A stretch of 36,551 nucleotides of DNA from Escherichia coli (GTDB lineage Bacteria > Pseudomonadota > Gammaproteobacteria > Enterobacterales > Enterobacteriaceae), in assembly GCF_003334765.1 (NCBI RefSeq), contig NZ_QOWT01000037.1; one strand, written 5' to 3'. The notes below the pieces were generated by a model. The model worked only from the letters and a program-made list of their open reading frames with translations. It did not search any database and was not told the origin of the DNA. The translations under genes were made by a program, and so were the position numbers. Of this stretch, positions 24,034 through 25,098 are shown one piece after another (position 1 is the first letter of the stretch; every line of letters begins with the position of its first letter).

Positions 24034-24705
24034 AATAGTTACCTTTTATGAGTATTTCACTGATGTTTAGAAAAATAGATAAATTTTTCTGTAGTAAAAT
24101 GAGAAGTAAACAAATGACATGCATGTTTCTGTTGTAGTGATATCAACTCTACACGGTGATATTAAAGGGTAGGAAACACTCTAAAGTATCAAAAAACGCT
24201 CATTTGAAATTATTTTCATGCAATTTAAAAGCATATCTTATTACTAATTGGAATTTGATGTTGCTATATTGATGTCTATATTAATAATGCCTGTGAATGG
24301 TATTTTTGATGTATTTGATATGTTATCAATTTATATTATTTACAAACTAATTGTTTCAAATAATACATGGCTGATTATGCGGAAATAAATAATTTCACAC
24401 CGGAATTAAGTAGCGGTGGTGACAAGTATTTTCATCTACGTAACTATTCGGAATATTCAGAATATACTAGCGGTTTTTTTTTGAGTTTGATGATTTTTAT
24501 CAAATCATGACTTTTTTCCTGAAAAGTCAGTAGATATTCATAGGCAAGTAAGGTTTTATACTTTGCTGACAGGATTCAGGCCTGTCTCAGACTGACATGG
24601 ATGTAATGAACAAAAGGGAATGGCTATGGAAAATGAGCATCAATACAGTGGTGCCCGGTGTTCAGGGCAAGCCGCATATGTTGCTAAACGTCAGGAGTGC
24701 GCAAA

Positions 24706-25098
24706 ATGATGCGCCAATCACGTCAGGCTGTTTTACCTGAAATTTCAGGCAATAAAACGTCATCGCTGCGTAAATCAATATGTAGCGATCTCCTCACTCT
24801 TTTTAATTCTCCTCATTCGGCATTACCGTCATTACTTGTTTCAGGCATGCCCGAGTGGCAAGTGCATAACCAGAGCGACAAACATCTCCAGAGCTGGTAT
24901 TGCCGTCAGCTGCGTTCTGCACTGTTATTTCATGAGCCACGGATTGCGGCGTTGCAGGTCAATCTGAAAGAAGCGTACAGCCACACGCTGGCGATCAGCC
25001 TTGAGATAATGCTGTACCACGACGATGAACCGCTAACGTTTGATCTGGTCTGGGATAATGGCGGTTGGCGTAGTGCGACGCTCGAGAATGTCAGCTAA
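24706..25098 (+). CDS. iraD: anti-adaptor protein IraD (inhibits RssB-mediated RpoS degradation)
   Basis: ORF 24697..25098; ATG at 24706 gives [24 protein letters not shown]... (130 aa); the 3' end overlaps convergent hypT by 8 bp. Confidence 0.85.

Follow-up and report, generated by a model that had tools for sequence, protein, structure and literature searches.

The 27-codon ORF ending in the iraD start codon of Escherichia coli is idlP, very probably a cis-acting coupling ORF of the iraD leader

A short ORF that terminates on the start codon of iraD raises the question of whether it is a chance reading frame, a leader peptide, or a device by which the translation of iraD is coupled to its own. 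The ORF was found in a 36,551-nt stretch of Escherichia coli DNA (contig NZ_QOWT01000037.1; hereafter the window), in which the initial annotation had described 27 codons ending in an ATGA overlap with the iraD start and had proposed translational coupling or a leader peptide. Both the coordinates and the peptide were confirmed; the ORF reads ATGGAAAAT...GCAAAATGA, from its ATG at 24626 to its TGA at 24709. A second ATG in the same frame, at 24620 (29 codons), abuts the GGGA and is without usable Shine-Dalgarno (SD) spacing.

The region around the ORF corresponds to the E. coli chromosomal arrangement uxuR, yjiC, iraD, hypT and iadA, with yjiC, hypT and iadA on the minus strand. The yjiC–iraD spacer, first given as 670 bp, measures 672 bp (24034–24705), and its AT-rich character was borne out by a GC content of 0.32, compared to 0.485 for the whole window. 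The IraD protein scored 298 bits against its equivalog model, for which the cut-off is 198. A 1061-bp query comprising the spacer and iraD was matched in 5396 of the 5426 complete E. coli genomes, in 640 of them at an identity of at least 99%. In strain C9 (NZ_CP010129.1), which is otherwise 100% identical, an IS1 is inserted within the yjiC–iraD region and the query matched in two pieces spanning 1836 bp.

The ORF is idlP, an element that is already named, annotated and experimentally characterized, and hence not new. In strain P470, whose genome is near-identical, RefSeq places a CDS “idlP, iraD leader peptide IdlP” (WP_120795393.1) at the corresponding coordinates. The counterpart in MG1655 is idlP, b4722; between the P2 start and the end of the idlP stop codon, the window and MG1655 are 100% identical. 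EcoCyc also places idlP among the leader peptides, and two other small ORFs, ytiC and ytiD, are annotated in the same spacer (Table 1). An NCBIfam search with IdlP and its diverged versions matched no family model. A search of the ribosome-profiling literature returned idlP just as an annotated leader peptide, and no paper naming its detection was found among those searched. A 605-bp contig labelled Bacillus coahuilensis m4-4 (NZ_ABFU01000118.1) holds idlP and iraD at 97% identity to E. coli, and is almost certainly E. coli contamination of the B. coahuilensis draft assembly.

Table 1. Features of the iraD leader region in window coordinates; negative offsets are relative to the A of the iraD start codon.
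Feature	Position	Strand	Remarks
P1 promoter-like hexamers TTGATG-16-TATATT	24255..24282	+	Putative P1 start ~24289
ORF23 of Park et al. (2017)	24320..24388	+	Presumed position; 3' part of annotated ytiC frame 24272-24388
ytiD (ORF47)	24367..24510	+	Contains T9 run 24474-24482 (codons GFFL) and HusR box 24458-24473
AT-rich inverted repeat TGACTTTT/AAAAGTCA	24508..24529	.	8 bp; overlaps ytiD stop
P2 transcription start (putative)	24569..24569	+	-137; TATACT -10 element at 24557-24562
GGA of CsrA site BS1	24572..24574	+	-134; acts only on P1 transcripts
CsrA site BS2	24594..24603	+	Critical for repression; GGA 24599-24601, -107
idlP SD AAGGGA = CsrA site BS3	24614..24619	+	GGA 24617-24619, -89; footprint -90 to -84
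idlP (ORF27)	24626..24709	+	27-codon iraD leader ORF; translation; RefSeq CDS; 100% identity to MG1655
GGA of CsrA site BS4	24628..24630	+	-78; within idlP codons 1-2
Predicted hairpin sequestering the iraD SD	24686..24733	+	GGAGU pairs with iraD nt +15 to +19; AUG in loop
iraD SD AGGAG	24693..24697	+	Inside idlP codons 23-24; GGA at -12; CsrA does not bind
ATGA overlap, iraD start/idlP stop	24706..24709	+	iraD ATG 24706-24708, idlP stop TGA 24707-24709; invariant across all Escherichia loci examined
iraD, anti-adapter protein IraD, 130 aa	24706..25098	+	IraD equivalog model NF010726

The frequency at which such an ORF arises by chance was estimated from 5000 dinucleotide-preserving shuffles of the 300 nt upstream of iraD, with the ATGA held fixed. 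Of the shuffles, 3.9% contained an ATG-initiated ORF that ended in the overlap and had 27 codons or more, a share that fell to 0.6% once an SD-like motif was demanded as well; several overlapping ORFs like idlP are expected by chance genome-wide. By itself, the uORF sequence is suggestive, short of conclusive, and the shuffle rates justify the caution of the initial annotation, which had kept a chance ORF as an option, and show that outside evidence was needed. The 3.9% of shuffles that give such an ORF once the ATGA is fixed, the equally open +1 frame, the unconserved middle of the peptide and the lack of a curated HMM family for it would all suit a chance open frame in an AT-rich spacer, without any role, in which case iraD would be translated solely from its own AGGAG SD. 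This reading can be given almost no credence, and is already refuted by published fusion and mutant data: iraD expression falls, both in vitro and in vivo, when the start is turned into a stop codon, an ORF27'-'lacZ fusion is active, and the sequence in the window is identical to the one tested. Lineages that have diverged to ∼80% nucleotide identity, with no indels, still share the SD, the ATG, the length and the ATGA overlap. It is the annotation, the experiments in print and the conservation that decide the matter.

The experiments are those of Park et al. (2017; mBio 8:e01355-17, PMC5574718), in which the uORF was named ORF27 and shown to be translated, and in which iraD was found to be repressed post-transcriptionally by CsrA. 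CsrA bound four GGA sites (BS1–BS4), all far upstream of the iraD SD, with a Kd of ∼15 nM for the leader; specificity was established by a competition assay, and binding was lost in a GGA-to-CCA triple mutant. The footprints were strong at -112 to -103 (BS2) and -90 to -84 (BS3), and weak at -78/-77 (BS4). BS2 also gave a toeprint, and a GGA-to-CGA change there strongly derepressed, while the GGA of the iraD SD was not protected by CsrA (Park et al., 2017). Counted from the iraD A, the five GGA motifs in the window lie at -134, -107, -89, -78 and -12, in agreement with the positions in that study. The AAGGGA first proposed as the SD of the uORF does fill that role, although its spacer to the ATG is 6 nt rather than the 8 nt given; its second identity, as the BS3 site reported to overlap the ORF27 SD (Park et al., 2017), had been missed.

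Fusions of the kind that the initial annotation suggested, in which the uORF or iraD is joined to lacZ and the uORF start is mutated, have largely been published, and support the coupling that it had put forward. The ORF27'-'lacZ fusion was expressed in PURExpress as well as in vivo and was derepressed in csrA::kan, and an ORF27 ATG-to-TAG change lowered iraD'-'lacZ, most clearly under CsrA deficiency (Park et al., 2017). In PURExpress, CsrA repressed iraD despite its nearest site being 58 nt from the iraD SD, and the repression was attributed entirely to blocked ORF27 translation, hence to coupling, with residual iraD translation without coupling also reported (Park et al., 2017). Translation of idlP, the CsrA sites, the dependence on the idlP start codon and an effect on mRNA half-life have been demonstrated experimentally on a sequence identical to that of the window. 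A later review restates the CsrA–iraD mechanism and uses the name idlP.

We are therefore highly confident that the uORF is idlP (ORF27), acting in cis as a coupling ORF of the iraD leader. Transcripts from P1 and P2 both carry idlP immediately upstream of iraD, and the iraD SD, lying inside idlP and held in a local hairpin, would permit only poor independent initiation. A ribosome on idlP would melt this hairpin and terminate at the UGA overlapping the iraD AUG, and iraD would then be translated through reinitiation of that ribosome or recruitment of a new one; the share of melting relative to reinitiation we can only infer. CsrA bound to BS2 at -107, BS3 at -89 and BS4 at -78, along with BS1 on P1 transcripts, blocks initiation at idlP, which shuts off iraD indirectly and hastens decay of the mRNA. 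Once CsrB/C sequester CsrA (stationary phase, ppGpp), idlP would be translated and IraD made, so that RssB would be inhibited and RpoS stabilized. The act of translating across the region would be what matters, the IdlP peptide itself apparently being without function.

Some of the same data could be read as an effect of the uORF mainly on transcription or RNA decay, in which RNases would cleave an untranslated leader, or Rho would end its transcription ahead of iraD. Repression by CsrA shortens the half-life of the iraD mRNA, and both the level and the half-life of this mRNA rise in csrA and BS2 mutants (Park et al., 2017). However, CsrA repression and the effect of the ORF27 start were reproduced in PURExpress, a purified system with T7 RNA polymerase, the leader is without a terminator-like element, and the authors of that study treat decay as a consequence of repression. 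A primary action on transcription or decay is very unlikely, and translational coupling remains the preferred explanation.

Conservation of the uORF, a check proposed at the outset, pointed in the same direction, the frame being kept in four diverged Escherichia lineages. The loci compared with the window were L002, L005 and L006, which form one group (a minority E. coli allele, E. whittamii and Escherichia sp. E1V33, respectively), L004 (E. coli E69) and L010 (E. albertii); a contig scan with two exact heptapeptides returned only four loci, and is therefore no fair census outside Escherichia. The nucleotide identity of the uORF to the window was ∼79–81% for the L002/L005/L006 group and L004, and ∼90% for E. 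albertii. In all of the diverged lineages the ATG remains at -80, the ORF has exactly 27 codons without indels, and the ATGA overlap persists. The GGA of BS2 is kept in all of them at -107 (-105 in E. albertii), that of BS3 lies at -89 in L002, L004, L005 and L006 and at -88 in E. albertii L010, and that of BS4 is kept in all at -78 or -77, while the position of the BS1 GGA is not conserved. The openness of the idlP frame is, taken alone, weak-to-modest evidence: no lineage has a stop in the +1 frame across the region either, and random sets of as many substitutions as observed spare the idlP frame in 42–47% of cases.

The architecture is conserved, and the peptide is unconstrained. IdlP shared 59–78% amino acid identity at 80–90% nucleotide identity, with residues 7–20 variable, and substitutions at codon positions 1/2/3 numbered 7/6/4 in idlP, compared to 14/8/29 in iraD, which has the expected third-position excess. 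Across these lineages no purifying selection on IdlP amino acids was detected, of the kind that would mark a functional small protein. This bears on the proposal that IdlP acts by its amino acid sequence, either in trans as a small protein or as a ligand-responsive stalling nascent peptide like tnaC, speFL or secM. The annotation as “leader peptide” would suit such a role, as would the conservation across lineages of the N-terminal MENEHQ and the C-terminal KRQECAK, but these conserved ends coincide with RNA signals, namely the BS4/start region and the iraD SD with its hairpin. With residues 7–20 varying freely, the third-position bias missing, and translation alone explaining the published data, a peptide-based action is very unlikely. 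A drifting peptide with no third-position bias argues instead for selection on the signals and on a translatable frame, and the conservation pattern fits a purely cis-acting coupling ORF.

Several observations were made on related loci. The +1-frame ORF at 24597–24740 has 47 codons (35 from the ATG at 24633) and overlaps both idlP and the start of iraD; in assemblies with a frameshift, it is joined to iraD by gene callers (P0003, P0008). Entries for “IraD” of 154–163 aa were considered as possible idlP–iraD fusions and rejected, one being extended by read-through at its C terminus and the others having the +1 frame fused on by a frameshift. A diverged iraD allele, of ∼81% nucleotide identity, occurs in ∼488 complete E. 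coli genomes. At L002 (E. coli Z1323CEC0015, 1675–2144), the neighbours are uxuR, iraD and a ptsP-like gene, without yjiC or hypT, and idlP is intact, yet not annotated by PGAP. PGAP evidently names idlP by sequence identity, which would explain why this diverged allele was left unannotated.

The folds computed for the leader reproduce the SD-sequestering structure that was reported from Mfold and RNase T1 mapping (Park et al., 2017), the hairpin emerging both when four Escherichia lineages are folded as a consensus and when MG1655 is folded. The predicted probability that the iraD SD is unpaired was 0.20–0.27 in MG1655 and ∼0.2 also in L002, L004 and E. albertii (local and full-leader folds), compared to 0.45–0.73 in the allele of the window. 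As in other coupled pairs, the downstream SD thus lies inside the upstream ORF and is predicted to be masked by structure, more weakly in this allele. In a plain minimum free energy (MFE) fold, the P2 leader of the window was no more stable than shuffles (z = -1.1) and its iraD SD was mostly unpaired (P = 0.73), which makes the hairpin part of the model weaker for this allele.

The window differs from MG1655 at iraD codon 3 (CGC in place of CGA, synonymous) and at codon 6 (CGT Arg in place of CTT Leu); both codons lie within 24712–24723, and both changes fall in the 3' arm of the SD hairpin. With Arg6, the hairpin that masks the iraD SD is predicted to be weaker. It is conceivable, if doubtful, that this amounts to allelic tuning, in which a hairpin-opening iraD allele would be partly independent of idlP and would partly escape CsrA, raising basal IraD and RpoS. 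The 640 of 5396 genomes with at least 99% identity set an upper bound for the strains with the iraD Arg6 allele.

Positions of P1 and P2 were derived from Park et al. (2017) together with a hexamer scan. P2 was placed at 24569 because P2 transcripts have only 3 nt before the BS1 GGA, and because the leader fusion starts at -138. P1 was reported to be ∼280 nt upstream of P2 (Park et al., 2017), and the only promoter-like hexamers found on the + strand in the scan, at 24255–24288, fit P1. Two further ORFs of the spacer, ORF23 and ytiD (ORF47), are translated, without effect on iraD (Park et al., 2017). ORF23 presumably starts at the ATG at 24320, in that the fusion end points of -376 and -323 fit the ATGs at 24320 and 24367. 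The annotated start of ytiC varies between records, the product having 38 aa in strain P470 but 33 aa in MG1655. Each of these starts is at or upstream of the putative P1 start, and ORF23 (22 aa) alone lies fully within the P1 transcript.

Two further elements had initially been listed beside the uORF, a T9 run at about 24471–24480 and a hairpin at 24507–24527. The run is in fact at 24474–24482, and the core of the inverted repeat (GACTTTT/AAAAGTC) at 24509–24515/24522–24528; both elements are upstream of the P2 start and outside the coupling mechanism, the repeat (24508–24529) being at about -60 to -40 relative to P2. The repeat may serve as a binding site for a protein. The T9 run and the hairpin were also considered as an intrinsic terminator or attenuator and rejected, since a scan of 24034–24760 found no terminator-like site and the T run is 5' of the stem, not 3'. 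Within ytiD, the window at 24458–24473 is an exact copy of the HusR (YnfL) gSELEX box CAGAATATACTAGCGG, with the T9 run directly 3' of it; this box has been reported upstream of idlP–iraD (PMC12844172).

In a protein search, IraD was found only in Escherichia, the next relatives being Citrobacter proteins of ∼45–53% identity (L007–L009). These are encoded by tssE genes in intact T6SS operons (tssB-tssC-hcp-tssE-tssF-tssG), and IraD itself scored 48.6 bits against the TssE model TIGR03357, with a cut-off of 53.2. IraD looks like an orphaned, repurposed TssE, and iraD probably derives from tssE relatives. As idlP is absent from the Citrobacter tssE relatives, the idlP arrangement appears to be Escherichia-specific and tied to the orphan iraD gene. 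At the hcp–tssE junction of the Citrobacter T6SS, the tssE start abuts or overlaps the hcp stop (TAATG in L009), a coupling-type junction like that of idlP and iraD, although its upstream ORF is a full-length structural gene. This overlap led to the idea of idlP as a relic of the hcp 3' end, which was assessed by locally aligning the leaders of four Escherichia loci, as DNA and as peptide, with two hcp 3' ends from Citrobacter, relative to shuffles. The idea was rejected for want of alignment support over the shuffled controls: in the best result, 11 of 300 shuffles reached the observed score before multiple-test correction, while the CDS control was far above shuffles.

The interest of idlP is that it links the global regulators CsrA and RpoS, as CsrA gating of a 27-codon ORF decides IraD synthesis, and so the protection of RpoS from RssB/ClpXP. 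This link was established in 2017 and is now standard annotation, and its recovery here adds no new biology; the initial annotation had reached the right mechanism from the DNA letters alone, without the regulator CsrA or the name idlP. What is added is that the genus Escherichia has conserved the coupling architecture rather than the peptide, also in alleles that PGAP leaves unannotated. Conservation of idlP was not addressed by Park et al. (2017).

Compared to known systems, the element in the window is the same as idlP/ORF27 of E. coli K-12 (b4722): the sequence from P2 to the stop, the CsrA sites and the ATGA overlap are identical, and the K-12 locus differs only in the adjoining iraD allele, at codons 3 and 6. 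The attenuation leader peptides trpL, hisL, leuL and pheL are likewise short translated ORFs in a 5' leader that control a downstream gene. However, idlP has neither a regulatory codon run nor a terminator/antiterminator pair, no terminator-like site of the kind that trpL-type attenuation calls for was found in 24034–24760, and the overlap of idlP with the gene start makes for control of translation initiation, not of transcription termination. In the uof–fur pair of E. coli, which Vecerek and colleagues are said to have described in 2007, uof is reportedly an upstream ORF of fur repressed by RyhB. There too, the regulator blocks initiation at a short uORF and coupling passes the effect to a downstream regulator gene, but the regulator is an Hfq-dependent small RNA and not the protein CsrA; EcoCyc counts uof, like idlP, as a leader peptide. 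Canonical CsrA repression, as in glgC, cstA and csrA, also involves several GGA sites, one of them over an SD, so that 30S binding is blocked, whereas at idlP the occluded SD is that of the uORF and not that of the regulated gene.
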